A DNA stretch of 64,000 bases from Thalassobaculaceae bacterium (GCA_965228875.1 OZ245843.1:2648616-2712615), one strand, 5' to 3'. Shown: positions 16,312 through 36,673, counted from the stretch's first letter. Program-made: numbers and translations. Notes: generated by a model from the letters alone, not told the origin.

Positions 16312-16452
16312 CGCTACTACCCTCCATATCGCGAGCGCCGCGAGGATACCATTGCCCGGCCCTCCCGCGAACAGACCTCATCCACCCCGCCGGCCACGTG
16401 CCGGCCTCATCCGATCGTCCGGACCGCATCCGCGGCCCGGCGTCCCGTCCTC

Positions 16453-17631
16453 TCAAAAAACCCGCTGTCCGAACGCCACGACCTGGCGACCGTCGAGATC
16501 GTAGACGAAGGTCGACGATTCCAGGAACGAGAACGGAATCTTGATGCCGACCCGGTCCGCGATCAGGAAATTGATCGCCAGGTCCGGCGGCGACACCGTG
16601 CCGACCGGCAGCGTTCCCGGATCGGCCTCGCCGGTGACCACCCGGACCGCATAGACCGCCGACAGGGTCAGCGCGCTGGTCAGGTTCACGCCGATCGACA
16701 GCAGCGCCGACTCCTCGCCGGCACGCACGATGTCCGGCAGCATGGAGATCACCGGCAGCTTTCCGGCGTGGCGATTGATCTGGGCGATTCTCTCGTAGAC
16801 CGCGGTCGACCCCGTGACCAGTAGGAGGCTGCGCGCTCCGTCCGGGTCCAGCGCCCGCATCTCGGCGATCGCCTCGGGCAGCCTTGCGTCCAGTTCCTCG
16901 GCCGCCGAGCCGCGCCCCTGAACGGTGATGTGGACGATGTCGAGGCCTAGCGCGTCCGCCGCCCGAACAAGCGGATTCACCTGGGTGAGAACCGCGCTCG
17001 CGTTGTCTTCCGAATACAGCAGCCCGATGGTCGAGAGGCTGGGAATCATCCGCCGCAGATAGGCGACCAGGGTTCCGGTCTCTACGTTGATCGAGGTGTA
17101 GGCGATGTTGGTCCCGCTGCCGGCCGGATCGTCCAGGTGACCGGAGGCGATCGGATCCTTCGACGCGCTCGTCACCGCCGGAATCGTGTGGCCGCTGTGG
17201 TGTTCGCGCAGGAAGGTCGTGGCCGACGATCCGGCGGACATGATGAGATCGACCGGCTGGCCGTAGGCCCAGTGCAGGGCCTCCTGCGCCACGCTCTCGT
17301 CGCCGTCGTAGTACCAGATGTCGAACCGAGCCGGCACCTGACGGCGGGCGAAGACCTGCAGGATCGTGTTGACCGCCAGCGTATAGGCCTCGACGGAGCG
17401 GCTCGGGATCAGGATCATCACCCGCTTCGACGCGGCCCGGCCGGACGGAACGGCGACGTGGCGGGCGGTGTCGCCGCCATCGGTATCGACCTCATAGGCC
17501 GCCAGCGTCGCCGGGTCGTAGCTCAGCCAGTCCAGGACGGGCCGGTCGGCGGCCAGCGCCGCGGCGTTCGCCCCGGCGGCAAAGCCGAGGGCGAGAAAAA
17601 TCAGAAGTCGGGCGGCCAGTGTCGTCATCAT
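16453..17631 (-). CDS. ABC-type substrate-binding protein (ABC_sub_bind-like), no cognate ABC permease adjacent
   Basis: Signal peptide; GTNIAYTS, IGLLYS..N, GEADPGTLPVG and AINFLIADRVGIKIPFS motifs. Confidence 0.75.
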   Translation of the reverse strand: MMTTLAARLLIFLALGFAAGANAAALAADRPVLDWLSYDPATLAAYEVDTDGGDTARHVAVPSGRAASKRVMILIPSRSVEAYTLAVNTILQVFARRQVPARFDIWYYDGDESVAQEALHWAYGQPVDLIMSAGSSATTFLREHHSGHTIPAVTSASKDPIASGHLDDPAGSGTNIAYTSINVETGTLVAYLRRMIPSLSTIGLLYSEDNASAVLTQVNPLVRAADALGLDIVHITVQGRGSAAEELDARLPEAIAEMRALDPDGARSLLLVTGSTAVYERIAQINRHAGKLPVISMLPDIVRAGEESALLSIGVNLTSALTLSAVYAVRVVTGEADPGTLPVGTVSPPDLAINFLIADRVGIKIPFSFLESSTFVYDLDGRQVVAFGQRVF

Positions 17632-17645
17632 TCCGTCCGCCACCC

Positions 17646-18629
17646 TCAGTAGGGCGCGCCGCCTTCGACCGTCAGCCGGTGCATGACGCGCGCCTCGTCC
17701 GGCGGCGTGAACGTCGCCGAATGGATGATCGACGCATTGTCCCACGCGATCAGATCGCCCTTGCGCCACTTGAAGCGCAGCACCCGTTCGGGGGCCGTCG
17801 CATGGTCGCAGATCCGGCGCAGCAGCGGCAGGGCGTCGGCCTGCTCCATGCCCTCGATGCCGACCATCATCTCCTCGTTCAGATAGAGCGCCTTGCGTCC
17901 GGTCACCGGGTGGGTGCGCGCGATCGGGTGGGCCTGCTCGGGGACGGCATTGCTCTTCTTCTCGGTCGGCGACGGCGCCTCCGCCGCCGCTTCGGCCTCG
18001 CGCTTGCGTTTGAGGGCCTCGATCTCCGCCTTCTGCTCGGCACTCAGGTTGCGCTCTCCGGAGAACACGAACTCCTTGCGCTGATATCGGTGGATCGCGC
18101 GCCGGCCGTCGATCGCCGCCCTGGTCGCGTCGTCGAGCCGGTCGTACGCGTCGTACATGTCGGCGAACAGGGTGTCGCCGCCGCGCGCCGGCACCTCGAC
18201 CCCGTGCAGCAGGGTGACGCTGCTCGGCTTCTCGACGAACGTGCTGTCGCTATGCCAGTGCGTACCGGCCCCGTCGCGACCGATCGGCTTGCCGTCCTTG
18301 CGGACGTTGGACAGCACGTAGATCTGCGGGTGCTCCGGGTGATTGTAGGCGCTGATGAAGAACGGCTCGATCGGCCCGAAGACCTCGGCGAACCGGATGA
18401 AACCCTGTGGCGGGATGTCCTGGCCGCGGATCGCGATCACCTGATGACGGTAGAACAGAGCACGGACACGCTCGGCCTCCGCTGCGGTGAGATCGCGCGA
18501 CAGGTCGAGCCCGGTGATCTCCGCGCCGAGAAACGGCGACAGCGGCACCGCCCCGATCCCAGCCGGATCCGCGCCGGCGGGCACAGCACCGTCCGATACC
18601 GCCTCATTCCGAACCGCTTCGTTCCGCAT
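17646..18629 (-). CDS. TauD/TfdA-family Fe(II)/2-oxoglutarate dioxygenase
   Basis: GAEITGLDL, HWHSDSTF (HxD), GGDTLFAD, HPVTGRKALY, WDNASIIH and RVMHR; RBS before ATG 18629. Confidence 0.9.
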   Translation of the reverse strand: MRNEAVRNEAVSDGAVPAGADPAGIGAVPLSPFLGAEITGLDLSRDLTAAEAERVRALFYRHQVIAIRGQDIPPQGFIRFAEVFGPIEPFFISAYNHPEHPQIYVLSNVRKDGKPIGRDGAGTHWHSDSTFVEKPSSVTLLHGVEVPARGGDTLFADMYDAYDRLDDATRAAIDGRRAIHRYQRKEFVFSGERNLSAEQKAEIEALKRKREAEAAAEAPSPTEKKSNAVPEQAHPIARTHPVTGRKALYLNEEMMVGIEGMEQADALPLLRRICDHATAPERVLRFKWRKGDLIAWDNASIIHSATFTPPDEARVMHRLTVEGGAPY

Positions 18630-18844
18630 CGCCCACCTCCCGTATCGGCCGCCGGGAAACCGCACCGCGACCGCCGCGGCCGATTGCACCCTTCGGCCAG
18701 GAATGATTCTATGGCTTGCCCTTCGGACATCGCCCCAGCGGGGCCGCCCGTCGGGACAGTATCTAGCACGAACCCGGCCGCCGGGTCGCGGGGTCAAGTG
18801 ACTTCGCACGGCGAACGCCGCGCAACCCGCGCCCTGGAGCCGTC

Positions 18845-19726
18845 ATGTCGCCATCCTCATCGTCGGACCCCGCGCACTGGCTGACGACCGACGAGGTCGC
18901 GGTGGATTTCGGGCGCGCCCCAACCGGCGCTCCCGGCGGACGCACGGCGCTGGCGGCAACACCCCTGCTGGTCCTCGTCGGCCTGACCGGAGCGGGCAAG
19001 TCGGCGACGGTCGAGGCCCTGGTGCGCCTCGGCGCCGTTCGAGCGGTGCTGCCGGACCGGCGTGCGCTGACAGACCGGATCATCCTGCCGGCGATGACCG
19101 GCGATCCCGACCGCCGGGTGGCCGATCGGATCGAGCGGTTCCGGCTGACCGCCGCTTTCCGCGAACGTCATCCGGGCGGGATGGGCGCCGTCTTGGCGCA
19201 CCTGTCCATCGAGTCCGCGCTCGCATCGCGGATCGGCACGGGGTGGATCGTCTTCGACGGTGTGCGGGGAGCGGCCGAGGTCGAGGCCGCGGCACGGCTG
19301 CCGCAGACCGTATTCGCGGCACTGCAGGCCCCGCCGGAGATCCGGGTCGCTCGGCTCAGCCTGCGCGGCGACCCGTTCGACCGGGCGGCGCTGACGGAGG
19401 CCGGCGGGCCGCCGGAGACCGGACCGGTCGATGACGACTACGTCCGGGTGCTGATGGAGCAGGGGCTTGAAGACCTGATCGGGCCGTCGGCGCTTCGGCG
19501 GTTGAGCCGGTTGCTGGCCGGGGCTGGCGCCGAGGTTGCGGCGGTGGCCGCCGCCGCCTCGATCGTCGTGGAGGAATCCCGCCACTACGATCCGGCCGAC
19601 GCGCTCGCCGTCCTACGGGAGCGGGTACCGGGCCGGTTGGTCGTCGTCGACACCGCGGAGAACGGCGTCGACGACGTGGTGACACAGATCGTCGCGGAAC
19701 TCGTCCAGCCCCGCGCCGCGTCCTGA
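18845..19726 (+). CDS. P-loop NTPase/kinase-like protein of unknown function
   Basis: LVLVGLTGAGKS Walker A, VFDGVRG, and APPEIRVARL resembling a nucleotide-kinase lid. Confidence 0.7.
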   Translation: MSPSSSSDPAHWLTTDEVAVDFGRAPTGAPGGRTALAATPLLVLVGLTGAGKSATVEALVRLGAVRAVLPDRRALTDRIILPAMTGDPDRRVADRIERFRLTAAFRERHPGGMGAVLAHLSIESALASRIGTGWIVFDGVRGAAEVEAAARLPQTVFAALQAPPEIRVARLSLRGDPFDRAALTEAGGPPETGPVDDDYVRVLMEQGLEDLIGPSALRRLSRLLAGAGAEVAAVAAAASIVVEESRHYDPADALAVLRERVPGRLVVVDTAENGVDDVVTQIVAELVQPRAAS

Positions 19727-20104
19727 TTACTCGCCCGTGTACCAGGCGTCGGCGTACAGACCGCCGCTGACCGCACCGAGCAGGCGCATGCTGCCCCGGA
19801 AGAAGGCATAGCCCGGCGTATGGACCAGCGCGAGGGCGCTGCCCTGACCGAGCGCGCCGATGCTGGAGCCGGTCAGCATGCCGTAGACCGGCAGGATCAG
19901 ACCATCGGTGACGATCGTGGCGACCACCGCACCGCCGACCACGCCGGCGGTCACGGCGACGGCCCGGTAGGCGTCGAAGCCCGACGCCTCGATCGATTCC
20001 GGAACGGCCGGCACACTGCTCTGGGCCTGGGCGCCGGTGGCACCGGCGACGACGAGGCCGAGAACGACCACCAGGGCCCTGGCGAGCATGGAAAGCTTGG
20101 TCAT
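19727..20104 (-). CDS. Exported/membrane glycine-zipper small protein 1
   Basis: Signal peptide (AQA); AGVVGGAVVA and LLGAVSGGLYADAWY GxxxG segments. Confidence 0.7.
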   Translation of the reverse strand: MTKLSMLARALVVVLGLVVAGATGAQAQSSVPAVPESIEASGFDAYRAVAVTAGVVGGAVVATIVTDGLILPVYGMLTGSSIGALGQGSALALVHTPGYAFFRGSMRLLGAVSGGLYADAWYTGE

Positions 20105-20176
20105 GAGGTTTCTCCCTTCAAGGACAGCTCGATTAAAGTGTGCAAGGCGTTCGGTCCGGCACCCGTCGGCCGGGTC

Positions 20177-20578
20177 TCAGTCACGGGCAAAGTAGTTGCC
20201 GGCCAGCCCGCCCCCGAAGGCGACGACGGCCGTTGCGAGTGTGTGGATCGCCATCTCGCCGGCCAGCGGCGCGGTTCCGAGGGCCGCCAGCCATGTGCCG
20301 CCGATGACGTTCGATGTCTGCAGTCCGACGACCGGGGCGAGCGCCGCCCCACCGGTGACGACATTCAGTGCCAAAGCGCCTCCGGCGGCGCCGAGAAACG
20401 AACCGCCGAGCGAACTGACGAGTACGGCGTCAGTGTCCCGCGCGTCGTCGAGCGACTGCACGATGGTCGGGCCGAGCGCGGGCTGGCCCGCCAAGCCGCC
20501 CTGTTGGGCCGCGACGGGCGACGCCACCAGAGCGAGCGCTACCGCGGCGATTGCGAGAATTCCGTTCGTCTTGCCCAC
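20177..20578 (-). CDS. Exported/membrane glycine-zipper small protein 2
   Basis: GTG start after AAGGGGG; signal peptide; LGGSFLGAAGGALALN and AFGGGLAGNYF. Confidence 0.7.
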   Translation of the reverse strand: MGKTNGILAIAAVALALVASPVAAQQGGLAGQPALGPTIVQSLDDARDTDAVLVSSLGGSFLGAAGGALALNVVTGGAALAPVVGLQTSNVIGGTWLAALGTAPLAGEMAIHTLATAVVAFGGGLAGNYFARD

Positions 20579-20954
20579 TTCGCCCCCCTTCGACCTCCGG
20601 CCGGTCCGGCCGATGGCGACCGCCGATTTTCCCGGCTCTATCGGTAACCATACCATATCGATGGCTGTATCACCGCCGACCTCGGCTGCGACATTTGGGC
20701 CCGCGCATCCCACCCCGTCGGACCCGAGCGCCGGGCGCGCCTAGCCTGACACCTTCGAATCCGTGATCGGGAATACCGACCCGACCTCCCAAAGGCTTGA
20801 AAACACCCGTCTTCGATCCTACCGTTCTGCCAATTGGGTGGCAACCGACGGCGGCGGCGCGGGCCATAGACAGCGCCGGGACGCGGCTTGCGCGGACCAT
20901 GCCGGATGGCCCCGCCGAGAGAGATTTCGTTGCCGCACCGCGGAAGGCCGTCCC

Positions 20955-21479
20955 ATGGAGCACAGCGCCGAACAGATCGTCGCGCACTGTAGCGGCGCCT
21001 TCAGCACCCTCACGCTGTTCGAGACGCACCTGGCCATCGACCGCGGCCAGCTCATCTGCGATTTCCACGAGATCGTGTTCCGCTCCCACCCGGTCCGCAA
21101 GAGCCGGATCGAGATCGCCGAGATCACCGATCTCAGCCTCACGGCATCGATGATCCTGCCGCCGCTCTTCGTCATCCGCTATGCCGGTTGCTCGCAGCTC
21201 ACCGGCTCGATCCTGCACGACGCCATTCTTGAAAACGTCCACATGCTCAGCTTCGTTGACAACCGCCCGTTCTACGCGCTGTACCATGCGCTCGACGACA
21301 TGATCTCCGAGTTCCGGTCGCGGGCGTTGGACGAGGGCGACACCGACGCGGCTCCCGCCGGGATCGACGCCCAAGACCCGAGCGACCCGGAACAGAAAGA
21401 CCCGGAACGGACCGAGCCGGACCAGACCGACCCAGGATTGCCCGCACCGGCGCAGTCCGACAGAACAGCGACGACCTGA
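20955..21479 (+). CDS. Hypothetical protein (beta-rich N-terminus, acidic Pro-rich tail)
   Basis: GC3-biased ORF, first gene of the 20955-24179 operon. Confidence 0.65.
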   Translation: MEHSAEQIVAHCSGAFSTLTLFETHLAIDRGQLICDFHEIVFRSHPVRKSRIEIAEITDLSLTASMILPPLFVIRYAGCSQLTGSILHDAILENVHMLSFVDNRPFYALYHALDDMISEFRSRALDEGDTDAAPAGIDAQDPSDPEQKDPERTEPDQTDPGLPAPAQSDRTATT

Positions 21480-21483
21480 TGCC

Positions 21484-22596
21484 ATGACGCTTCGCACTGC
21501 CGCGACCTACCTGTTCTCGCTCGCGATCCTCGGGGCTTTCGCCACCAGCGGGGTCTACGCGTTCCGCGGATCGCCGTTCGGTGGCCAGGAGAACGCCGCC
21601 GAGTTCGTGCGTCCCGACTGGGCGCGCGAGATCAACAACCACGTCGGCTTCCCCGCCTACAGGCTGCGCGACGACGGCTCGTCGGTCGCCATCGGGCGGG
21701 TCGTGATGCTGGGGCCGGAACGCCTCGAGGTTTCGGTGTTCCCCGACGTGCACATGCCGCCGCTGGGCGAGGCGCGGGTGCTGCTGCTGGAGACCAACGC
21801 CCGCTCCCTGCTGGCTCTGGTTCCAGACGCGTCCAGGGCGCAGATGGGGCGGGACATGGAGCGGGTCGCCCGCTCGATGCGCGACCGCTTCGTGTCCATC
21901 GTGCGCGACCCGGCGTTCGACGAGCGGTACCGCACCCGCCTGCAGGATATCGTGGTCGACGCCTACCGCAGGGTCCGGGCCGATCCGGCCCTGGATCTCG
22001 CCACTGACCGGGCGATCGAGATCTATCGCCACGAATACGCTCCCGAACTCAGCAACAGCCTGCTGATCGCCGCCGTGCCACGGATGCGCGCCGCCGCGCT
22101 GGAGATGATGACGCCGAGCTGGCAGAGCATGATCGACCTGATCACCGAAGGCAGGGTCGACTACAGCCCGCTCGGCGACGCCGCTGCCGACCTGCTGCGC
22201 AATGACAGCTTTTTCGACTCGCTCGTCGTCCACGCCCTCGACCTCGGCCGCGACCGGCGGTTCTGGCGGCTCGGCGTGCTGCTGGCCGATGCCTTCATCG
22301 ACGAGATTTCCGACGATCCCCGCACCGAGGCGCTGCTCGACGACATTGCCCGGGATCCGGCCTTCCACACCGAGCTGCAGGTGCTGGAGCGGGAGGCCGC
22401 GACGGCGGCCACGACCATGTTCTCGAGCGTCGTCGGCCGCGGGCCCGAGATGCGCCCGGACACCCTGGCGGTCCGCATCATCCGTTATATCCTGCTGCGC
22501 CGTCCCCGCGTCGTCGCCGTCGTTCTCGAGGAGGGCGCCACGCCGCCCTCCAGCATGCTGGGACGCTTCGCCCCCCTGACCAAGGCCGGATCTTGA
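21484..22596 (+). CDS. Membrane-anchored protein with a long helical region (possible MCE/MlaD analogue)
   Basis: N-terminal TM, short beta-rich segment, then helical region; stop overlaps the start of the MlaF-MlaE fusion. Confidence 0.65.
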   Translation: MTLRTAATYLFSLAILGAFATSGVYAFRGSPFGGQENAAEFVRPDWAREINNHVGFPAYRLRDDGSSVAIGRVVMLGPERLEVSVFPDVHMPPLGEARVLLLETNARSLLALVPDASRAQMGRDMERVARSMRDRFVSIVRDPAFDERYRTRLQDIVVDAYRRVRADPALDLATDRAIEIYRHEYAPELSNSLLIAAVPRMRAAALEMMTPSWQSMIDLITEGRVDYSPLGDAAADLLRNDSFFDSLVVHALDLGRDRRFWRLGVLLADAFIDEISDDPRTEALLDDIARDPAFHTELQVLEREAATAATTMFSSVVGRGPEMRPDTLAVRIIRYILLRRPRVVAVVLEEGATPPSSMLGRFAPLTKAGS

Positions 22597-24179
22597 CCCT
22601 GACTCCGAACGATGTTTCCGGCGGGCCCGTCCTCACGGTCTCGTCGCTCTCGATCACGCAGCCGGCCGGACGGGTCCTGCTGCGCGACGTCGATCTGTCG
22701 CTGAACGCCGGCGAGATCGTCATCCTCGCCGGACCGAGCGGTAGCGGAAAATCCACGTTCATCAACCTGCTGTCCGGCGCGATCGATCCGCGCGAGGACG
22801 GCTGGCAGGCCTCCGGCTCCGTCGCCTACGGCGGCGGCACCTACGACCTGGCCAGCGACCGGGTGGCGATCGGCGGCGTGGTGTTCCAGAACTTCGCGCT
22901 GTTCGACGACCTGTCGATCGCCGACAACCTCGCGATCGCCAGCGATCACAGCGCACCGGTCGGCCAGGGCCTGCGGGAGGCGATCGATCACCTGCTGGAG
23001 GACGTCGACCGGCACCGGCCAGTGGGCGCGGCCAGCGGCGGGCAGCGCCAGCGCGTCGCCATCGCCCGCACCCTGCTGGGCAACCATCCGGTGCTGTTCC
23101 TCGACGAGCCGAACTCCGGTCTCGACGTGTCGTCCTCGCGCCAGCTCGCCCGCCTGCTGCGCGACCTGGTCGACGAGGTCGGGATTCCGCTGGTCATCAT
23201 CGCCCACCACTTCCGCCACCTCATCGACATCGCCGACAGGATGATGGTGCTGGACTCCAACGGACACACCCTGGTCGAGCTTCCGGTCGCCGGCGACGCC
23301 ATCGAGGCGGCCCTGTCGGCGGTGGAGAGCGGCGAGACGGTGACGCCGGCCGAACCGGCGCCGCGACCGGAGCGCAGGGAGCCGGACACGACCGCGGCCG
23401 CAAGTCCGCCATCGGCCCTCGCCAGCCCGGAATGGCGCCTGGAATGGGCGCTGCGGTACTTCTTCGGCTACATCTGGGAGCTGTGCTTCGCCCCGTCGGC
23501 GCTGCTGTTCGTCGGCCTCGGCTGCACCATCGTCGGTTTCGTGACGACCTGGTTCATCTTCATGTACCTGCCGTTCCGCGACTACCTGCTGCCGGTCATT
23601 CATTCCGACGCGCTGGCCGGCCTTGCCTTCGCCGAACTGCGGGTGCTCGCGCCGCTGATGGCGGCGGTGCTGATCAGCGTGCGCAACTGTTCGCTGATCA
23701 CCGCCAATATCGGCCACAAGGTCTATTCCGATCAGATCAAGTCGATGCGCAACCTGAACGTCCCGCACCGGCTCTACCTGAACACCATGATCATGACCGC
23801 GTCCGCGGTGGCGGCGGTGTTCCTGGCGGTCGTCGCGGTCAGCGTCACCGCCTGGATGACGATGATGACCTGGTCCCAGATCTTCCCCGACGGCTCGACC
23901 TACATGTGGCGCGACCAGTTCTTCCAACGCCTGTGGCCCCCGGGCGTGTCCATCATGGTCGGCTGGGACTGGATCCTCGCCAAGAGCGTGCCGTCGATCG
24001 TCGGCGCCGCCGCCATCGCGCTGTATTTCGGGTACCGTCCCAAGAAGGACGTCCTGGACATCAACAGGGCGATCGCCCAGTCGCTGATCTGGGGGCTGTC
24101 CTTCGTCCTGACCTGGCAGTCCATTCTCACGCTCGTCGAATTCAAGCAGGTGTCCGCCCGGCTCGAAGCGACGTTCTGA
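22593..24179 (+). CDS. ABC ATPase fused to an MlaE-type permease
   Basis: GPSGSGKST, VFQNFALF, ASGGQRQR and LFLDEP, followed by the MlaE-like LRVLAPLMAAVLISVRNCSLITANIG...QIKSMRNLNV...YL. Confidence 0.85.
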   Translation: MTLTPNDVSGGPVLTVSSLSITQPAGRVLLRDVDLSLNAGEIVILAGPSGSGKSTFINLLSGAIDPREDGWQASGSVAYGGGTYDLASDRVAIGGVVFQNFALFDDLSIADNLAIASDHSAPVGQGLREAIDHLLEDVDRHRPVGAASGGQRQRVAIARTLLGNHPVLFLDEPNSGLDVSSSRQLARLLRDLVDEVGIPLVIIAHHFRHLIDIADRMMVLDSNGHTLVELPVAGDAIEAALSAVESGETVTPAEPAPRPERREPDTTAAASPPSALASPEWRLEWALRYFFGYIWELCFAPSALLFVGLGCTIVGFVTTWFIFMYLPFRDYLLPVIHSDALAGLAFAELRVLAPLMAAVLISVRNCSLITANIGHKVYSDQIKSMRNLNVPHRLYLNTMIMTASAVAAVFLAVVAVSVTAWMTMMTWSQIFPDGSTYMWRDQFFQRLWPPGVSIMVGWDWILAKSVPSIVGAAAIALYFGYRPKKDVLDINRAIAQSLIWGLSFVLTWQSILTLVEFKQVSARLEATF

Positions 24180-24356
24180 CCGGTCAATCGCGCGACCAGC
24201 GGGTACGGTCGGCCGGAACCGGCAATCCGCGACTGGATTTTCGCGGTCACACGCGTCCTAATGCGCCGCAGCGAGAGCCCGGTGCGCAAGGGCCGGTTCA
24301 CCGATCGGCTCATCGTGGGCCGGCCGGATCAGACGCGACGCACGGGAGCCGAACGG

Positions 24357-25265
24357 ATGCAGCAGTTCCTCGACTTCATGGGCGCCATGCGCGGCGGCCG
24401 GAGGTTCGTTTCCCTGGAGGAGGAGCGCGGGCTGCTTCAGACCGCCACCACCCGCCACGGGATGACCCTGGACGATGCCCGCTCGGCCCTGCTGGTCGGC
24501 GCCCGGCAGTCCGACCTGCTTCTTGAGAGCGAGGTCGCCGACGAGGTAACCGCGTTTCTCTCCGCCCGGATCGGCCAGGACGGCCGGGTGAGCAGGGCGA
24601 ACTTCCGCGCCGCCGTCGACTTCTTCGCCCGGCGCACGGGCAATGCCGTCTCGCCGACGGAGGCCGAGCAGCGCGTGCGCCAGTTGGTGGTTCGCGCCGG
24701 CTGGACCCCGGCGCCCGCCGGCTGGCTGTGGCGCAGCACCGCCTGGTTCGACTCCATCCCGGCCCCGACGCCCCGCGCTCGGCCGATGCCGCCGGGGGTC
24801 GGCCTCGAGCCCGGTACCCTTCATGGCGGCGCTCCCCAGGGCGGCGCACCGATGGCGACCGGCGACCCGGGCTCGGTGCTGTCGACCTGGGCCGCCGCGC
24901 TGCGGTCGCGCAACGTGGAGCGGATCCTCGCCCTGTACACCCAGGACGCGCTGCTGCTGGCGACGGCGGAGCACCGACCGCTGATCGGCCCGCCGCAGAT
25001 CCGGACCTATTTCGACCGCCTGACCTCCTACGAGGGTCTGACCGTCACCTTTCAGGAAGAGTTGCAGCGGCTGAGTTCCGACCGGGCGACAACGATCAGC
25101 GGGCTGTACACCTTCGCCTGGATCGACCCGGCAAGCGGCGCCGAACTGGTCACCCCGGCACGCTACACCTACACCGTGCGGGACGGCGACGGCACGCGGG
25201 CGCGGATCAGCCTGCACCACTCCTCCCGGCTGCCCGGAAACTACCCGGGAGCGACCGAGATCTGA
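24357..25265 (+). CDS. Unknown helical domain fused to an iota-carbonic-anhydrase-like / CaMKII-association (NTF2/SnoaL fold) domain
   Basis: C-terminal W..AL, LY..DA.LL(A)T, IRTYF, SGLYTF, PARYTY and HHSS motifs; alternative start at 24261. Confidence 0.75.
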   Translation: MQQFLDFMGAMRGGRRFVSLEEERGLLQTATTRHGMTLDDARSALLVGARQSDLLLESEVADEVTAFLSARIGQDGRVSRANFRAAVDFFARRTGNAVSPTEAEQRVRQLVVRAGWTPAPAGWLWRSTAWFDSIPAPTPRARPMPPGVGLEPGTLHGGAPQGGAPMATGDPGSVLSTWAAALRSRNVERILALYTQDALLLATAEHRPLIGPPQIRTYFDRLTSYEGLTVTFQEELQRLSSDRATTISGLYTFAWIDPASGAELVTPARYTYTVRDGDGTRARISLHHSSRLPGNYPGATEI

Positions 25266-25320
25266 GCGATCGAGATCAGCCAGATCGGACGGCCAGGGGA
25301 CGAACCGTCCCCCGGCTCGC

Positions 25321-25746
25321 TCAGGTCTGGCGGCCTTCCTCGACGATCTTCACGCCGCCGATCCGCGAGTGGAAGTGGGCGTAGCAGAGGCCGATGCACA
25401 TCACCACGACCAGCGTGAACTGCATGGCGTTGACGAGATCCGTGCGGCTCTCGATCACCACCCACTCCTTGTCGATGGCGAACAGGGCGCCGGCCGAGGT
25501 GGTGATCGTCACCAGAAGCAGTCCGGTGCGCTGCAACGCGACGGCCCCGGTCTCGGTGATGTTGTAGACGGCGAAGCCGAGCATGCCGAAGCAGCAGATC
25601 TTCAGGATGATGTCCTGGTCCGGATAGTCCACGACCCAGTGGTAATACGAGTATCCGCTGGTGTTGTACGAGGCGAACACCACGAAGGCCGGATAGAGCA
25701 GCCGGGCCAGAATCCCGCCGGGGCCGAGGATGAAGTGTCCGTCCAT
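25321..25746 (-). CDS. DUF6524-like small membrane protein
   Basis: VFASYNTSGYSYYHWV motif, four hydrophobic segments, C-terminal HFHSRIGG. Confidence 0.65.
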   Translation of the reverse strand: MDGHFILGPGGILARLLYPAFVVFASYNTSGYSYYHWVVDYPDQDIILKICCFGMLGFAVYNITETGAVALQRTGLLLVTITTSAGALFAIDKEWVVIESRTDLVNAMQFTLVVVMCIGLCYAHFHSRIGGVKIVEEGRQT

Positions 25747-25819
25747 GCGATCCGATCCGCCGTTGGACTGCCGCGCAAGGCCGATACCCTAACCAGCCTG
25801 GGCCGCCGTAGGCAAGCGG

Positions 25820-26791
25820 TCAGCAGGCCGCGGCCACCGTCGGCAGCCGACACAGGGAGGTCGACAGGCGGGCCCTGGCATCGGCGATGGTCAGGTCGCG
25901 CTGCTCGCGAACGACAGCGGTGAGTGCGCCCTCCAGTTCCGGCCGGTTCAGGGCGCTGTCTGCCCAGTTGATCATGTAGTCGGCGCCCCAGAGGCCGGCG
26001 GCCAGCACGCCGGAGAAGAGCGAAGCGCCGACCAGCCCGCCGGCGTCCAGCGTCGCGGCGGCGGCGGCACCGCCGAGGGCCGGGATCACCAGCGGCACGA
26101 CGACCATCCGTGTGGCGGCGCTCAGCATCCGGATCGACAGCGGCCGCGCGGAACGGACCAGCACCCGGTCCGCATGGGGCCGATCGTCGTCACCCACCGC
26201 CGCCACCAGCCGGGCGCCGAGCGCAAGCCGTTCCGGTGCCGGCGGCCGCCACCCCGCCAGCAACGGTTCCGCGAACCGGGATGGCGCCCCCCGATCCGCC
26301 CGCTGACGCGCAAGCCGGCGGTCCAGGCGGCGGAGTTGCTCGACCGTGCCCGCCCAAGCCGTCGCCAGGTCCCGCGCGGCGGTCTCCGGCACGATCACCC
26401 GGTCCTCGAACTCGTCACCCACATAGGTTTCCAGATCGCGGACGACACCGGCACCGTCGATCCGTCCGTCGCGTGCGATCTGGGTCCCGGCGGCCTGGAG
26501 CCCCACGCCGGCCAGCCGCGCGCTGACCTCGATGCTGGACAGCCAGCCGTAGATCCAGCCGCCGTAGTCCGGAATCCGGTCCTCGATCCGCTCGAAGGGC
26601 TGCGCCAGCCGCTTCGCCACCAGGTCGTCGGCCGCCAGCCGCAGCGTGAGGGCATCGCGTGCGACCCAACGTTGGGCCCGAACCTCCGAAACCGCGGCCG
26701 AGGCGCCGCCCGCCGGGTACACGACCGTCCAAAGGATCAGCGCGAAAAGCCCACAGGCAATAGAAATCAACAACCGTTGCGAATATTTCAT
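25820..26791 (-). CDS. Hypothetical membrane protein with a glycine-rich hydrophobic hairpin
   Basis: N-terminal TM, helical middle region (RIPDYGGWIYGW), LGGAAAAA..GGLVGASLFSGVLAAGLWGADY. Confidence 0.65.
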   Translation of the reverse strand: MKYSQRLLISIACGLFALILWTVVYPAGGASAAVSEVRAQRWVARDALTLRLAADDLVAKRLAQPFERIEDRIPDYGGWIYGWLSSIEVSARLAGVGLQAAGTQIARDGRIDGAGVVRDLETYVGDEFEDRVIVPETAARDLATAWAGTVEQLRRLDRRLARQRADRGAPSRFAEPLLAGWRPPAPERLALGARLVAAVGDDDRPHADRVLVRSARPLSIRMLSAATRMVVVPLVIPALGGAAAAATLDAGGLVGASLFSGVLAAGLWGADYMINWADSALNRPELEGALTAVVREQRDLTIADARARLSTSLCRLPTVAAAC

Positions 26792-26966
26792 CTACATAAT
26801 GCCATGCATCATTACCGTTCCGACGCGGTCGTGTCGACGCGCCGGACGCGTCGGATCCGGATCAAGAGACCATAAACGAGGTGACGTTCGAAGACCCTTG
26901 ATGCATTATGTGCACCGCAACAGCCTGACGTCGCCAACCGACCAGAAACGAACGGGAGAATGTGGG

Positions 26967-27413
26967 ATGAAAGCGCTGGCTTACTTGTTGTTTTCCGCCG
27001 GCCTCATGATTGGGTCCGTGTCGGCGGCGTCGGCGCAGCAGACCGCTCCGGCGGCGACACCTCCGGCCGTCGAGAGCGCGGTGTCCTCGGCCGAGGCGGT
27101 CGGCGGCGCGGTCCTGACGCCCGAGCAGCTCGAGAATCTGAACGCCCTTGTCGACCAGATGCAGGACAGCATGGACGACATGGTTCAGGCGGCCCGCGAT
27201 GCGGCGCTGCAGATCGGCAGTGACACCAAGACCGTGGTTCTGACCACCAACGACGTCGTGGCCATCGCCATCGGCTCGGTCGGCGGCGCGCTGGCGGTCG
27301 ACCTGCTGGGCGGCGGTGGCATCGCCACGCTGGCCGGTGCCGTGGTCGGCGGCGTGGGGGCGCACTGGCTGATGACGCGCTCCGACGATCTGTTCGAGCT
27401 GCCGTCGTACTGA
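26967..27413 (+). CDS. Exported/membrane glycine-zipper small protein 3
   Basis: Signal peptide (ASA); AIAIGSVGGALAVDLLGGGGIATLAGAVVGGVGAHW. Confidence 0.7.
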   Translation: MKALAYLLFSAGLMIGSVSAASAQQTAPAATPPAVESAVSSAEAVGGAVLTPEQLENLNALVDQMQDSMDDMVQAARDAALQIGSDTKTVVLTTNDVVAIAIGSVGGALAVDLLGGGGIATLAGAVVGGVGAHWLMTRSDDLFELPSY

Positions 27414-27589
27414 GGATATCGGGCGGCGTCCGGAGCGGGCGCCGCCAAGCCTGCAGGGAAGGGAATTTCGGGGGGTACGGCGGTTCCGACGAATCACCCG
27501 GCGAATCGGTTTCTGATTGCGCCGCGGGCCGTTTGCGTTGATAAAATGGCCCCGATTTCAAGGAATTGCTGAACGGGTAGCGGATATCG

Positions 27590-28036
27590 ATGGCGTCAGA
27601 TTCAGAGACGAGACGGCGGTTCGCCGACATGGTCCGCATCGAGGGGATGAACGGCGGGTTCATCCGCGCCGAGGACGAGCGTCGCCTGCTTCAGGAAGGC
27701 ATGACCCGCTTCAACCTGACCCTCGACGAAGCCAACGGCGCCATGCTGGCGACGGTCAACGATCAGAAGCTGGTGCTTCAACGGGTCGCCGACGAGGGAA
27801 CCCGCGAATTCCTCAACATGCAGGCCAACCGCGGTCGCCAGCGCCGCCTTTCCCGCGACGACTTCCGGCAGGCGGTGGAACTGTACCGGGCCAAGGCCCG
27901 CCAGCGGGTCTCCGAGGACGAGGCCAAGCGGCGGGTGAAGGCCCTGATGCTCGAAGAGGGCATCACCGCGAAGCGGCACGGCTGGTTCATCCGGTCGCGA
28001 CGCTGGTTCAATTCCATTCCGGAACTGCTTGCATAG
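27590..28036 (+). CDS. Stand-alone paralog of the N-terminal domain of the 24357 protein
   Basis: Shared motifs E(E/D)ER.LLQ, TR...TLD(D/E)A, SR..FR.AV, VS..EA..RV and GW..RS..WF.SIP. Confidence 0.75.
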   Translation: MASDSETRRRFADMVRIEGMNGGFIRAEDERRLLQEGMTRFNLTLDEANGAMLATVNDQKLVLQRVADEGTREFLNMQANRGRQRRLSRDDFRQAVELYRAKARQRVSEDEAKRRVKALMLEEGITAKRHGWFIRSRRWFNSIPELLA

Positions 28037-28091
28037 GACATCAGGGGTAAGCCCGCCGGCACCCCGTGGCCCGCAACCCGAGGATAGTGGC

Positions 28092-29789
28092 ATGGCGAAC
28101 CGACCACGGCTTCCCAACGTGGATCCCGAAGACCTTGCGAAGCTGGCGAGCCAGTATCCGGGAAGCCGCACCTCCGGTGAGGCCGATGCGTCTGCCGGCG
28201 GCACGGGATCGGGTGGATCGGGTACCGGCAGCGCCGGGACGAGTGCCGCGGCCGCCTCTCCCGCCGGCACCCCGTCGTCGCGACTTTCCGCCTCCCGTGG
28301 CAGTGGCAGTGGCAGTGGCTCCTCAGCCGCCGGCGGCGCGGCCGGCAGCGGATCGGGCGGCGGTTCGGCCAGCAGGTCGGGCGGAACCTCCGCAACCGGC
28401 ACGCCGCCGCCGGCCAAGGCACGCGGCAGCTGGTCGGCAGCATTCCTGACATTTCTGTTCGCCGTGATCGCGCTCGCCGCCGCCGTCGCCTCGATCGGCG
28501 CGCCCAGCTACCGGGCGGAGATCCGCGCGCTCCTGACTACCTACGTGAAACCCCATCTGGACCTCGAACAGGACACGATCGACATCGTCTCCGGCTACGA
28601 CACCGACCGGCTAGAGGTGACCTACGAAGGTCTGGATCAGCGGATCGAACAGCTCGCCGCCGCCCTCGATCGCGTCGCCGCCACCGACGGCGTATCGGGT
28701 GACGATGTCCGGCAACTGCTGTTCCGCGACGAGACTGCAGACCGGATCGACACCATGGGCGACGGGCTCGACGCCCTGTCGGGACGCGTGGCCACGATCG
28801 CCGACGAGGCCGCCGCGCAGGCGGACCGGATCGACGGCCTCGGCGCCGATCTCGCCGCCACCGGCGAGCGCCTGACGGCGGAGATGACCGGCACCGCCGA
28901 CCGCATGTCGGCCGAACTGGCGACCGCCATCGAAACGGTGCGGACCGAGACGACCGCCGACTTCGAATCCCTGAACGCCGACCTGCAGGAGGCCGTTGCC
29001 CGCGTCGAGGGGTCGATCGCCTCGCTGCAGGACGCGCTGACGGCCGCCCGCGGCGAGATCGATGCCCTGTCCCCCCGCATCGACGGGATCGACACCGCGA
29101 TCGAGAATCAGGTCTCAGTTGATGCGGCGATCGCCGATCGGCTGAACGCGGTGGACGAGCGCGTGGACGGTCTGGTGGGCGACTTCACCGACCTCCTGGA
29201 CCTGAGCGACCAGGTCGCCCAGACGGTCAGCACGTTCAAGAACGAGAACATGCCGATCCTGGCGGTGATCCAGCTGCGCGACGCGATCAACCGCTCCGGC
29301 CCCTACGGCCCCGAGCTTTCCTTCGCCCGCCGGGTCCTGAACGGCGCCCCGGGAATCCAGGCGGCTCTTGAGAAACTGGATTCCAGCGCCTCGGACGGCA
29401 TCGCCTCCGTGCCCGAACTGCGGCGCGATCTGCGGCTGATCGCCCGGAATCTGGGAACCATCGTCGCCCAGGTGGAATCCTGGTCGGATCGGGTGTCCGG
29501 CTGGTTCAACATGCTGGTCGGCGCATCCGCCGTACCCGAGGTCCGGCAGGGCGGCAGCGTGGTCGCGGTCGTGGCGACGATCGACGACGCGCTCGACCGG
29601 GGCAACCTGGAGCTGGTGATCCGCGAAGGCGCGGCGCTTCAGGCCGAGTGGCGGTCGCCGGCTCTCGCCGACTGGCTGCAGGCGGTGGTCGAGCGCATGG
29701 AGGTCACGGCGGCTGTCGGCACGCTCCAGGACGTGGTCTACACCCGTGCGACGACGTCTCAGCCCAAGGGGACGGACAAGGCCCAGTAG
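28092..29789 (+). CDS. Mitofilin/Mic60-like (COG4223) membrane protein A
   Basis: Gly/Ser-rich N-terminus, one TM, long acidic coiled coil, then the C-terminal pattern LRDAINRSGPYGPEL, ASDGIASVPELRRDL, WSDRV, ALDRGNL, ADWL. Confidence 0.75.
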   Translation: MANRPRLPNVDPEDLAKLASQYPGSRTSGEADASAGGTGSGGSGTGSAGTSAAAASPAGTPSSRLSASRGSGSGSGSSAAGGAAGSGSGGGSASRSGGTSATGTPPPAKARGSWSAAFLTFLFAVIALAAAVASIGAPSYRAEIRALLTTYVKPHLDLEQDTIDIVSGYDTDRLEVTYEGLDQRIEQLAAALDRVAATDGVSGDDVRQLLFRDETADRIDTMGDGLDALSGRVATIADEAAAQADRIDGLGADLAATGERLTAEMTGTADRMSAELATAIETVRTETTADFESLNADLQEAVARVEGSIASLQDALTAARGEIDALSPRIDGIDTAIENQVSVDAAIADRLNAVDERVDGLVGDFTDLLDLSDQVAQTVSTFKNENMPILAVIQLRDAINRSGPYGPELSFARRVLNGAPGIQAALEKLDSSASDGIASVPELRRDLRLIARNLGTIVAQVESWSDRVSGWFNMLVGASAVPEVRQGGSVVAVVATIDDALDRGNLELVIREGAALQAEWRSPALADWLQAVVERMEVTAAVGTLQDVVYTRATTSQPKGTDKAQ

Positions 29790-29807
29790 GGCTGCGCCCG
29801 AGCGTCC

Positions 29808-30422
29808 GTGGAACCCGGTGAACTGCTCGCAGCGCTCGGTGCCCGCCTGGTCGGCGGCATCGTCCTGGTCGCTCTGCCCGTGGCCGGATATGTGGTTGCG
29901 AACGCGGTCTGGCGCGTCCACGCCCTTCACTTCTTCCACCGGGTCACCCTGCTGTCGAAGCTGGCGATGGCGACCGGCATCCTGCTCGGCATCGGCGTGA
30001 TCGCCGCGTCGGACGCCCGGCCGTCCTTCGACATCAACGATATCCTCGCCGCAGGCGGAGCCTGGGACCTGCCGTGGCGGAAATTCCTCGCCGATATCGG
30101 CAATCCGGGCCTCTACGACTACGCGCCGCTGTGGATACACCTGACGACCGCCGAACTCGACGGCCCGTGGGTGGTCTACGGTGTCGCGGTCTCCGCGGCC
30201 GGTATCGCGAGCGCCGTCGCCCTGCTCGCGATGCTTCGCGGCGAGGAGTTCCTGATCGGCGTCGTCGCCATGCTGTACGAGATCCTGGTCATGCAGGCGC
30301 TCACCATGTACGCGGTCCTTCTCCTGGCCTACGCCCTGTGCACGTTCAATTTCTGGACGGTGCTGATCGCCCTGATGGTCCTGCAGTATTACAGGTACGT
30401 TAAACATCCGGCCGGGCACTAG
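29808..30422 (+). CDS. Hypothetical integral membrane protein
   Basis: About five hydrophobic segments; lies between the two Mic60-like genes. Confidence 0.7.
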   Translation: MEPGELLAALGARLVGGIVLVALPVAGYVVANAVWRVHALHFFHRVTLLSKLAMATGILLGIGVIAASDARPSFDINDILAAGGAWDLPWRKFLADIGNPGLYDYAPLWIHLTTAELDGPWVVYGVAVSAAGIASAVALLAMLRGEEFLIGVVAMLYEILVMQALTMYAVLLLAYALCTFNFWTVLIALMVLQYYRYVKHPAGH

Positions 30423-30522
30423 AATTTCCAGGGATGCGGCGGTTTGCGCCTCAGCGACCCGATACATTTCACATCGGCTGTAGTATGATCACCGGGAACG
30501 TCTCTCAGCAAAATTATGGGGA

Positions 30523-31902
30523 ATGGTCGTGACGGACGAGGACACCGGCGGCACCGCCAAGACGACGAAGCGCAAGTCCGCCTCGACGGCCTCGCGCTCG
30601 ACCTCCAAGCCCCGGGCGAGAACCGGATCGGCCAAGACAAGTGCCTCCAAATCCGGCGCCACAAAGGCCGGTTCTGCAAAGACCGGTGCCTCGAAGACCG
30701 GTGCCGCGAAGACCGGGTCGGCCAAGGCCGCCTCTACGAAGGCCCCTGAGACCAAGGCCCCTGAAACCAAGACACCCGAGACCAAGACACCTGAGACCAA
30801 AACACCGGCGACGCAGGCCGCCGCCGCCAAGTCGGCAGCCAAGTCCGCCGCTCCCCCGACACCGGAAGCTTCGGTGTCGGACGCCCCCAAGACCGAACCG
30901 ACCAAGACCGACTCCCCGCAACCCGAAACGCCGAAGGCTGCAGCCCCGATGACCGACGCTTCGAAGACTGAGACCCCGAAAACGGATGCTCCGAAGACGA
31001 CGCCGCCCCAGGCTGCCGCGGCGTCCTCCGGCCCCACGACAGGTGGCGGCACGGGTGGATCCGGCAGCGGCGGCGGCGGAGGCTCCTACCCCGCGCCGGC
31101 CGTGGCACCCCAGCCCGCGAGCGGAGGCCTGTTCAGCATGCCGATGGTCCTCAGCCTCGCGGCGATCGTGATCGCGATCCTGATCCCGGTAATCAACCAG
31201 AAGGCCTACGAGCCGGCCATTCAGCCGACCGACATCGCGGCGCTGGAGACGACCCAGGCCGAGCTGGCGGCGTCGGTGGCCGAGATCAAGGCGAGCATCG
31301 ACGCGCTGTCCGTTCAGCAGGACACGCTGCGGAGCTCGATCTCGGCGGTCAGGATTCCGGCCGTGATGATCGCCGCCTCCGACCTGCGGGCCGCGATCGA
31401 GTCCGGCGAGGAATTCGCCGAGCCGCTAACCCTGTTCGAGGCTATCGCCGGCGAGAATGAGGCCGTTGCGTCGGTCTACGAACTCCGGCCCCTGGCCTTG
31501 GGCGGCATCCCGACGGTCAAGGAACTGCAGGCGGCGTTCGGCAATCTGTCGCACGAGGTGGTCGCCAGCTATCAGACCGTCGCCTCCGAAGGCGACCTCG
31601 CCAAGCGGGTGTCAGAGACCATGGCCAATCTGACGGCGGCGACCACGCGGCTGCGTTGGCGCCTGGACGGCACGACCCCGCCGGAAGGGGACTCGCCCCT
31701 GGCGGTGATGGCGCGCGCGGAGATCGCCGCCGCCAAGGCCGATTTCGATGCGGTTGTCGCGGAGATCGAGACCCTGCCGGAAGACCTCAAGGCAATCGCC
31801 GCCGGCTGGATCGAGCAGGTGCAGGCGCAGAAACAGGCGACGACGGCGATCGAGGATCTCGACCTGTTCATGATCGAAACCCTCGCCAGTGCGCGGAAGT
31901 AG
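30523..31902 (+). CDS. Mitofilin/Mic60-like (COG4223) membrane protein B with a Lys/Ala/Thr-rich repetitive N-terminus
   Basis: One TM, coiled coil, then LRAAIESGEEFAEPL, GGIPTVKELQAAF, AVMARAE...ADFDAVVAEIETLP, AGWIEQVQA. Confidence 0.78.
   Translation: MVVTDEDTGGTAKTTKRKSASTASRSTSKPRARTGSAKTSASKSGATKAGSAKTGASKTGAAKTGSAKAASTKAPETKAPETKTPETKTPETKTPATQAAAAKSAAKSAAPPTPEASVSDAPKTEPTKTDSPQPETPKAAAPMTDASKTETPKTDAPKTTPPQAAAASSGPTTGGGTGGSGSGGGGGSYPAPAVAPQPASGGLFSMPMVLSLAAIVIAILIPVINQKAYEPAIQPTDIAALETTQAELAASVAEIKASIDALSVQQDTLRSSISAVRIPAVMIAASDLRAAIESGEEFAEPLTLFEAIAGENEAVASVYELRPLALGGIPTVKELQAAFGNLSHEVVASYQTVASEGDLAKRVSETMANLTAATTRLRWRLDGTTPPEGDSPLAVMARAEIAAAKADFDAVVAEIETLPEDLKAIAAGWIEQVQAQKQATTAIEDLDLFMIETLASARK
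30630..30810 (+). repeat. Coding 15-bp (pentapeptide) tandem repeats KTGAA/KTGSA and KAPET/KTPET
   Basis: aaggcccctgagacc aaggcccctgaaacc aagacacccgagacc aagacacctgagacc..., preceded by aagaccggtgcc units. Confidence 0.8.
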
Positions 31903-31934
31903 GCATCGCCTGCCAGACATCGCAATCACGATCG

Positions 31935-31965
31935 GGACCGGCGTTTGCCGGTCCTGTTTCGTTTT
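31935..31965 (+). terminator. Rho-independent terminator after Mic60-like B
   Basis: ggaccggc-gttt-gccggtcc hairpin followed by tgtttcgtttt. Confidence 0.65.
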
Positions 31966-32001
31966 CGGCCCCGTTTTCCGACCCCGGTGCTTCGGCCCCG
32001 G

Positions 32002-32655
32002 CTAAGCCTCGGAGAAGAGGACCGGCTCGATCTCGCGGGCGAGGTTGCGAATCTCCAGCGCCGCGCGGTTCTTCGGCGCGAGGCTGAGCGGAGAGGCGCC
32101 GTGATAAGAGGCCTCCTGGAACACGACCCGGTCGCCGATCCTGGCGTTCAGCGGCCGCAGGCCAAGCTGTTCGAGGTTGCGTTCCGTGTGGCGGACCACG
32201 GTCGTCATCCGCTTGACCCGATTGAGCACGGAGTGAAACGGGATGTCGCGGCGCGTCAACTTGCTGGCGCTGTCGATCACCTGCTTCATCTTGGCCGCCT
32301 CGAACAGGCTGGCCTCGTCGGGCATGACGGGGACCAGCACCATGTCGGCGACGCCGACCGCATAGACCATCGCCTGGTTGCCGAACCCGGCGGTATCGAC
32401 GATCACGATATCCGCCTCTTCGCCGAGCGCGTAAACGCTCTCGATGATCTCGTGCTCGTTGGAGTTGGCGCTGACGGAGATGTCCTGGAAGCCGGTCCCG
32501 CTCTTGCGGGCCCAGCGCGCCATCGCCTCGTTCGGATCGGTATCCAGAATGGCCACCGTCTTGCCCTGGTCGCGCCAGTAGGAGGCCAGGGCGGCCCCGA
32601 TGGTCGTCTTTCCCGTTCCGCCTTTACTGGTGGCTACCACAAGGATACTGGCCAT
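32002..32655 (-). CDS. Short ParA-family ATPase (type Ib-like), no parB adjacent
   Basis: ATSKGGTGKTT, LDTDPN, IVDTAG, VLNRV and RVVFQEA. Confidence 0.9.
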   Translation of the reverse strand: MASILVVATSKGGTGKTTIGAALASYWRDQGKTVAILDTDPNEAMARWARKSGTGFQDISVSANSNEHEIIESVYALGEEADIVIVDTAGFGNQAMVYAVGVADMVLVPVMPDEASLFEAAKMKQVIDSASKLTRRDIPFHSVLNRVKRMTTVVRHTERNLEQLGLRPLNARIGDRVVFQEASYHGASPLSLAPKNRAALEIRNLAREIEPVLFSEA

Positions 32656-32783
32656 GACCGACAAGACTCTCGTGCAGTGGAACTGCAATGATGGCCGACG
32701 CGTCCTGCCGACGATAGCGCGATGTTGCCCGGCGTCGGGATTTCCGCTTTAGTGCGCCGGTGTCCTGGCAGGCGGATCCTCTG

Positions 32784-33377: not shown

Positions 33378-33407
33378 CGGCGCCTCCCTGGCCGGTGGCG
33401 CCCGGCC

Positions 33408-34199: not shown

Positions 34200-34244
34200 C
34201 GACGTCTGGTTCCCCCTGCCCGTTCCGCGTGGATGCGGTCGCCG

Positions 34245-36615: not shown

Positions 36616-36673
36616 CGCCGACACCAGGACCGGTGTAGACTCGCCCTCCGGCCGACAGAAGGAAAGCAGAGCA

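Follow-up and report, generated by a model that had tools for sequence, protein, structure and literature searches.

The iota class is the newest class of carbonic anhydrases (CAs); its known bacterial members are proteins of one domain that carry an export presequence, and its algal members are plastid-targeted proteins built of repeats. Here we describe a gene in which an iota-CA-like domain is joined to a domain of a family without a name. The gene lies at positions 24357-25265 of a 64,000-nucleotide stretch of DNA from a Thalassobaculaceae bacterium, a marine alphaproteobacterium (GCA_965228875.1, OZ245843.1:2648616-2712615). This stretch is called the window in the following, and all positions refer to it unless otherwise stated. 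Mutagenesis of the Anabaena iota-CA all2909 has identified Thr106, Tyr124, His197 and Ser199 as required or important (PMC8132391), and the corresponding residues of the diatom enzyme (tp-iota), namely Thr62, Tyr77, His139 and Ser141, occur in each of its repeats (PMC8395977). For the COG4875 group, represented by the diatom protein LCIP63 (tp-iota-CA) and by BteCA-iota of Burkholderia territorii, a structural proxy is available in 3H51, a "putative CaMKII association domain" of Xanthomonas campestris whose identity to the iota-CAs assayed from the diatom and from Burkholderia is 38-42% (PMC8132391).

The carboxy-terminal domain (C-domain) of the protein described here is like the COG4875 enzymes in its NTF2/CaMKII association-domain fold, in the (H)HHSS motif and in the Thr/Tyr/His/Ser set. 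Unlike these enzymes, the protein has no signal or transit peptide, carries an unrelated amino-terminal domain (N-domain) of 137 residues and a disordered linker in front, contains one CA-like domain instead of two to four repeats, and ends with a family-specific tail, PGNYPGA..I. With the metal-free iota-CAs of COG4337, that is, all2909 and Bn86287 of Bigelowiella natans (structures 7C5V-7C5Y), it shares the fold class and the HHSS strand, whereas the COG is a different one, the sequence alignment is confined to the C-terminal third, and those proteins are located in the periplasm or in the plastid. Other NTF2 families (SnoaL_2, DUF4440, SgcJ/EcaC, ketosteroid isomerase (KSI) and the CaMKII hub) show 8-19% identity in the listed structural matches, with E-values many orders weaker than that of 3H51. 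We regard the protein as a member of a known enzyme kind with a novel architecture, attached to an undescribed domain family and to an uncharacterised gene cluster; no comparable CA from Thalassobaculum came up in a literature search. The reading that we favour, at a probability of roughly one half, is that this is a leaderless two-domain protein whose iota-CA-like C-domain likely interconverts CO2 and bicarbonate and whose N-domain docks the enzyme at a membrane-associated assembly.

The gene and the parts of its product are listed below, with the local confidence of an AlphaFold2 model expressed as predicted local distance difference test score (pLDDT).

24344-24348, plus strand: GGGAG, a ribosome-binding-like site read from the sequence, 8 nucleotides 5′ of the ATG.
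24357-25265, plus strand: the target gene, 302 residues plus stop codon, encoding N-domain, linker and iota-CA-like C-domain.
24357-24767, plus strand: N-domain, residues 1-137, of an unnamed family; all-helical plus two short strands, pLDDT 74-93.
24768-24866, plus strand: Pro/Gly linker, residues 138-170, disordered; 45% Pro plus Gly, pLDDT below 50 over residues 140-169.
24867-25262, plus strand: C-domain, residues 171-302, NTF2-like and iota-CA-like of the COG4875/3H51 type; modelled as a helix and a curved sheet over residues 171-290.

The observation from which this analysis started, a 302-residue gene with three parts, is confirmed. In a collection of 5.8 billion proteins, 18 homologue clusters (45-67% identity) all begin with MQQF and display the two-domain layout; together with the target they form what is called here the 19-member family, in which identity to the target reaches down to 45%. 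A longer reading frame would be possible from an upstream ATG at 24261; the homologues nevertheless start at MQQF. The G+C content at third codon positions (GC3) of the target frame is 0.90, like that of the neighbouring genes, and a promoter and terminator scan over 24000-25900 found none. The AlphaFold2 model, computed with the 19-sequence family alignment, has a mean pLDDT of 75 and falls into the three parts listed above. The linker, which the sequence-only reading had described as rich in Pro and Gly, proved to be exactly that, and it is the sole region of the protein with insertions or deletions and without conservation among homologues, varying in both length and sequence.

The same reading had held that the protein has no signal peptide, and this held up as well. 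Specifically, the hydropathy maximum over the first 40 residues (Kyte-Doolittle, 12-residue) is only 0.19, without any hydrophobic leader, which suggests that the protein is cytoplasmic and lacks an export signal. The same measure is at least 1.9 in 39 of 58 single-domain relatives. Leaderless proteins account for 14 of these 58, and a presequence is therefore typical of iota-CAs and not defining. At the opposite end of the protein, the tail PGNYPGA..I (residues 293-302; 25233-25262), which follows the strand with HHSS, is a conserved feature of the fused proteins of the Thalassobaculaceae and could be a docking peptide.

The placement of the C-domain rests on several comparisons. In a phmmer search against all sequences of the Protein Data Bank (PDB), 3H51 was found at an E-value of 7.2e-11 over residues 171-293 (30% identity), the runners-up being a ketosteroid isomerase (0.095) and the iota-CA 7C5X (0.13); the alignment to 7C5X covers the strand with HHSS in each of its three repeats, and HHSS is aligned to 3H51 too. 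Foldseek, queried with the model of the target, also places 3H51 first (E-value 3e-10, 30% identity), the remaining listed matches having 11-19% identity, and the C-domain displays the alpha+beta cone fold of the NTF2/CaMKII association-domain type. A profile built from 30 single-domain relatives (29 free-standing proteins and one fragment of the fused family) reaches 3H51 at 3.6e-40 (140 bits) and 7C5X at 1.1e-15 over all three repeats, in comparison to 8.7e-6 and at most 29 bits for the best ketosteroid isomerase. Searched against the complete 4.96-Mb genome, this profile matches the target gene alone (E-value 2e-37, 129.8 bits), a score that chance could by no means produce. By sequence, then, the C-domain is to be assigned to the COG4875/3H51 group, in which the iota-CAs are placed, as the sequence-only reading had maintained. 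A closer similarity to non-CA SnoaL/NTF2 proteins, one half of what that reading had said would speak against a CA, was looked for and did not emerge at the sequence level, because the relatives' profile ranks 3H51 and 7C5X far above the ketosteroid isomerases.

An exhaustive HMMER search of 1.84 billion representatives, with a profile of 306 positions retaining both domains, returned about a dozen further fused forms and many proteins that match the C-domain part alone. The latter include proteins of three, four and six repeats; those with a name come from eukaryotic algae (an EukProt entry and Chlamydomonas sp. UWO 241), and the relatives with three to six repeats share the architecture described for algal iota-CAs. 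Of 22 C-type relatives scanned with Pfam, 20 match PF08332 (CaMKII_AD), which ranks first among the families in 16 of them, and the ESM Atlas cluster nearest to the C-domain is 81% PF08332. The names given to the fused family in public annotation, "DUF4440 domain-containing" and "SnoaL-like domain-containing protein", hide probable CAs.

The residues that correspond to those tested by mutagenesis can be located precisely. For a wider comparison, 118 C-type domains were aligned, taken from 82 non-fused proteins among the top 150 matches, one row being a fragment of a fused form.

24957-24965, plus strand: L-A-T, residues 201-203; Thr203 is equivalent to the catalytic Thr, invariant in 19 of 19 family members and Thr in 108 of the 118 related domains.
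25008-25013, plus strand: Tyr218-Phe219; Tyr218 is equivalent to the catalytic or proton-shuttle Tyr, invariant in the family and Tyr in 117 of 118.
25215-25226, plus strand: H-H-S-S, residues 287-290, the signature motif of iota-CAs, with the positions tested by mutagenesis at His287 and Ser289.

Thr203 and Tyr218 are 15 residues apart, as are Thr62 and Tyr77 of the diatom enzyme. Across the 19 members Thr203, Tyr218, His288, Ser289 and Ser290 are invariant. The Thr/Tyr/His/Ser set is retained by all nine of the more divergent fused forms whose C-domain is complete, and it is found in full in 102 of the 118 related domains; further family-wide residues kept in the target are Y194, G249, Y251, F253, A268, R269, I284 and P293. 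The motifs listed by the sequence-only reading were all found, namely LYTQDALLLAT (193-203), IRTYF (215-219), SGLYTF (248-253), PARYTY (267-272) and LHHSS (286-290). That reading had, however, regarded LAT in place of LPT, and LHHSS in place of HHHSS, as deviations, and this part does not stand: both are normal variation of the family because, in the 118 domains, the triplet ending in Thr is LPT in 40, LAT in 31 and another one in 47, HHSS is preceded by E (29 domains), H (24) or D (18) and in the rest by N, S, T, Q, A, V or others, and the consensus itself is given in a review as (H)HHSS (PMC8425729). Leu precedes the motif only in four degenerate LHNSG rows of that alignment. The catalytic Thr/Tyr/His/Ser set is thus intact, and, judging from these conserved residues, the C-domain most likely interconverts CO2 and bicarbonate.

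The N-domain, for its part, has no sequence match in Pfam, NCBIfam or the PDB; together with its helical model, this agrees with the earlier description of a helical domain of no named family. The same genome encodes a second copy on its own.

27590-28036, plus strand: free-standing N-domain paralogue, 148 residues, isoelectric point (pI) 10.7, 2.3 kb downstream of the target.

These are the only two N-domain copies in the genome, and both lie in this locus. The fused N-domain (pI 8.9) is 42% identical to the basic free-standing protein (E-value 3e-25) and keeps all family-invariant elements, namely E, L, EA..RV, GW and W; these comparisons show the N-domain of the target to be a duplicate, since diverged, of the conserved free-standing protein. 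The paralogue is 88-92% identical among Thalassobaculum-level relatives and 88-89% in five syntenic loci in which the fusion protein is 63-65% identical. Compared with the fused protein, the free-standing one is thus extremely conserved.

The family extends far beyond this locus. The exhaustive search returned dozens more free-standing members of 137-177 residues, named just "hypothetical protein", and one ESM Atlas cluster of the family has 2,473 members and no Pfam family; in a Pfam scan of 56 members, no family was matched by more than one of them. Modelled with a 56-sequence alignment, the free-standing N-domain reaches a pLDDT of 94 and a predicted template modelling score (pTM) of 0.85, and consists of six main helices, two short strands that pair with each other and, at the C-terminus, a GW...W hairpin. 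Weak leads, obtained with two tools, are ENT, TerB, Tic110-like helical domains and RecX-type three-helix repeats, all scoring no better than unrelated helical proteins do. An internal duplication was considered as well, since the two halves (helix-strand-helix-helix) look alike in the model; it is unsupported by sequence, because hhalign of the halves gave a probability of 13% over 20 columns. Among proteins of 166-529 residues that contain an N-domain, the CA-like fusion is the sole multi-domain architecture found, and a search for longer fusions (358-2000 residues) with the free-standing paralogue came back empty, a weak piece of evidence.

Of all neighbours, it is the gene facing the target in the window to which the N-domain family is linked most consistently.

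25321-25746, minus strand: DUF6524 membrane protein (PF20134, E-value 5.6e-29), convergent with the target at a gap of 55 bp; single copy in the genome.

A literature search returned nothing on DUF6524 or PF20134. Of 401 alphaproteobacterial genomes sampled, seven contain the N-domain family and 19 contain DUF6524; six of the seven N-domain genomes have DUF6524, two of those six coming from one family and being, as relatives, not independent. In five of six distant loci DUF6524 is encoded within a few kilobases of the N-domain gene, and in one of them (L010) it lies 69 bp downstream on the same strand. A complex prediction for DUF6524 and the free-standing N-domain scored 0.00, which is uninformative in either direction. 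Across the 19 genomes, DUF6524 seems to fall into two groups, a high-scoring, single-copy one (E-values 1e-47 to 1e-54) in genomes without the N-domain family and a lower-scoring, often multi-copy one (1e-23 to 1e-44) in N-domain genomes. Homologues of other genes around the target recur in some of the distant loci, that is, those of a tetratricopeptide repeat (TPR) protein, a 204-residue membrane protein, a ParA-family ATPase, a bestrophin-like protein and the ABC-MlaE pair. Two distant loci also carry resistance-nodulation-division (RND) pumps and long HlyD-like proteins, and one of them MlaA.

Taken together, these data allow a mechanism to be proposed. The NTF2-like cone of the C-domain would form a predicted pocket with Thr203, Tyr218, His287 and Ser289, in which CO2 and bicarbonate would be interconverted without a classical metal triad. 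The N-domain is a duplicate of a small, basic and strongly conserved free-standing protein whose family is tied, through its genomic surroundings, to DUF6524 and to envelope or lipid-transport genes such as the ABC-MlaE fusion and those for long coiled-coil membrane proteins, TPR and ParA, and the flexible linker may let it dock the enzyme at the site normally bound by the free-standing paralogue. As a consequence of this docking, bicarbonate, CO2 and protons would be interconverted at a membrane-associated assembly and not in the bulk cytoplasm, and bicarbonate is predicted to be supplied or removed locally. The bulk cytoplasm could be served by the beta-CA of the genome, in which one beta-CA and one alpha-CA, encoded outside the locus, cover the housekeeping need. 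The latter, the sole alpha-CA of the genome, is found at C1:2728506-2729126 in genome coordinates, about 16 kb past the end of the window. If the favoured reading is true, a leaderless iota-CA-like domain joined to a docking-type domain would show bacteria positioning such an enzyme at a defined intracellular site. It would also offer, in bicarbonate, CO2 and proton chemistry, a functional handle on a conserved cluster with many proteins to which no role has been assigned, among them DUF6524 and the N-domain family.

A number of observations weigh against this reading, and several of them are what a different one would build on, namely that the C-domain is an NTF2-like domain with another chemistry or a ligand role (isomerase, dehydratase, hydrolase or sensor, of the SnoaL, KSI, SgcJ/EcaC or DUF4440 kind), with the N-domain coupling that function to the cluster. 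In Pfam, the target matches SnoaL_2 best (28.1 bits, cut-off 27), followed by DUF4440 just short of its threshold (24.3 bits, cut-off 25.2); both match all 19 family members weakly, and PF08332 matches five of the 19 at E-values up to 0.01. The target protein itself gives no PF08332 match at E-values up to 1, and a whole-genome PF08332 scan misses its gene. Passing the SnoaL_2 gathering score indicates clan-level membership only and is silent on function. The single NCBIfam match, to SgcJ/EcaC (TIGR02246), is confined to residues 174-223 and, at 17.6 bits, falls short of the cut-off of 33.95. A ranking by structure (VIA) favours ketosteroid isomerases and designed NTF2 proteins and leaves 3H51 and 7C5X outside the top 50; fold ranking is incapable of separating iota-CAs from other NTF2 proteins. 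Moreover, the functions of NTF2-fold proteins diverge widely (PMC8425729), the likeness of the target to the assayed LCIP63 and BteCA-iota is indirect, running through 3H51 and the papers, and the CA activity of 3H51 itself is unconfirmed (PMC8132391). Against another chemistry stand the sequence and profile searches, in which 3H51 and 7C5X are 5 to 30 orders of magnitude closer than any KSI or SnoaL structure, and the family-wide conservation of all four residues that iota-CAs require. On balance we consider another chemistry rather unlikely.

Other points that count against an iota-CA docked by its N-domain concern architecture and distribution. In the published description of bacterial iota-CAs, a presequence of at least 19 residues at the N-terminus is combined with one or two repeated domains (PMC8425729), and the target has no such presequence. 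His287, one of the mutagenesis-tested positions, is Gln in one family member (18 of 19 keep it). A FastTree phylogeny of the C-domains (128 rows, after seven rows with fewer than 100 filled columns had been dropped) is poorly resolved, with four label changes, which is compatible with one origin of the fusion, and with no sister group that can be named. A COG4875-type gene is absent from all five distant N-domain genomes, as scanned with PF08332 and with the relatives' profile; the system therefore works without such a gene there, and the fusion is a lineage-specific addition to a wider system. As the PF08332 scan misses the target itself, PF08332 absences in other genomes mean little. The bestrophin-like family, a possible anion channel encoded in the same cluster, occurs in only two of the five distant N-domain genomes, so that the link to a bicarbonate channel is weak, and the bestrophin-like protein is not counted here among the core components. 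Finally, the binding partner of the N-domain is hypothetical. The C-domain might instead serve mainly as an oligomerisation hub, like that of CaMKII or the 3H51 dimer, making the N-domain multimeric, for example as a bivalent adaptor or as a regulator that competes with the monomeric paralogue. Oligomerisation gives the fold family its name, 3H51 and iota-CA domains pair via their beta-sheets (PMC8395977), and the free-standing N-domain is far more conserved than the fusion across the family-level loci. Oligomerisation alone, however, would not demand an invariant pocket of Thr, Tyr, His and Ser down to 45% identity, and the hub and CA roles are not mutually exclusive; a hub as the main function seems to us improbable. 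As for an annotation or assembly artefact, with two genes joined or the wrong frame read, the only thing to note in its favour is the longer open reading frame from 24261, and no support for it was found. It is refuted by the recurrence of a single frame with both domains, in six genome loci that are independent of one another and in about 30 clusters of proteins, together with the MQQF start and the GC3 value, and its probability is close to nil.

We return to the favoured reading, that of an iota-CA-like enzyme docked by its N-domain, to consider the genes among which the fusion is found. In five records of Thalassobaculaceae (L004-L008), a block of about 20 kb (15196-34844), made of mostly uncharacterised genes, is conserved in synteny with a counterpart for each gene, and the fusion and the free-standing N-domain gene are both present in five of these five loci. 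The upstream half of the block is syntenic also in a distant alphaproteobacterial metagenome-assembled genome (L009), whose target homologue is 46% identical; the contig stops at the stop codon of that gene, so that the comparison covers the upstream half only. The block encodes, among others, the TPR protein, an ATP-binding cassette (ABC) substrate-binding-like protein, a P-loop protein, a 370-residue protein and several small and multi-pass membrane proteins, including the one of 204 residues at 29808-30422. Its further genes are the following.

22593-24179, plus strand: ABC ATPase fused to an MlaE-type permease in one polypeptide, directly upstream of the target at a gap of 177 bp.
28029-29789, plus strand: 586-residue protein with a disordered N-terminus, one transmembrane segment and a long coiled coil, directly 3′ of the free-standing paralogue.
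30523-31902: 459-residue protein, the second of the transmembrane and coiled-coil type, with N-terminal low complexity (T-K-T-P-E-like repeats) and one transmembrane segment; weak C-terminal match to Mitofilin/Mic60 (E-value 0.0025).
32002-32688, minus strand: ParA-family ATPase (NF041546, E-value 4e-42), with a 46% identical homologue in the distant locus L019.
33408-34199, minus strand: bestrophin-like membrane protein, a possible anion channel (PF14023, E-value 7e-45); single copy.

The order of the ABC-MlaE gene followed by the target is kept in L009, where the matched segments are 65 bp apart. For the ABC-MlaE protein, identity to its homologues in the related loci is 66-81%, and L020 has one that is split or partial. 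The end of the free-standing paralogue gene overlaps the start of the gene for the 586-residue protein by 8 nucleotides, and translational coupling is therefore suggested; in L019, an N-domain gene likewise precedes a gene for a 652-residue protein with a weak HlyD match. In another distant locus (L014), a bestrophin-like homologue of 42% identity adjoins the N-domain gene.

A possibility that goes further, and which we put forward tentatively as unlikely, is that the whole cluster encodes an undescribed membrane or envelope-associated machine with the small basic N-domain protein as a core soluble subunit, and that the Thalassobaculaceae have recruited a metal-independent CA to it by fusing the enzyme to a second copy of this subunit that arose by duplication ("paralogue mimicry"). 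Its putative parts would be the ABC-MlaE fusion, DUF6524, the two long coiled-coil membrane proteins, the multi-pass membrane proteins, the TPR protein, ParA and the bestrophin-like channel. If true, the fusion would be the first case of an iota-CA that has a docking domain dedicated to it, and the first hint that this machine handles bicarbonate, CO2 or protons.

A few genes near the block and farther out complete the description of the window. At the edge of the cluster (34931-37006), a 378-residue protein precedes an RsbW-like HATPase_c_2 protein and one with a STAS domain, an arrangement that resembles a partner-switching regulatory module. On the other side, 12734-15145 on the minus strand encodes an 803-residue protein with a major facilitator superfamily (MFS) domain from about residue 380 and an N-terminal half without a Pfam match. 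CHAD domains are associated with polyphosphate granules, and a CHAD-domain protein is encoded at 960-2570, about 22 kb from the target.

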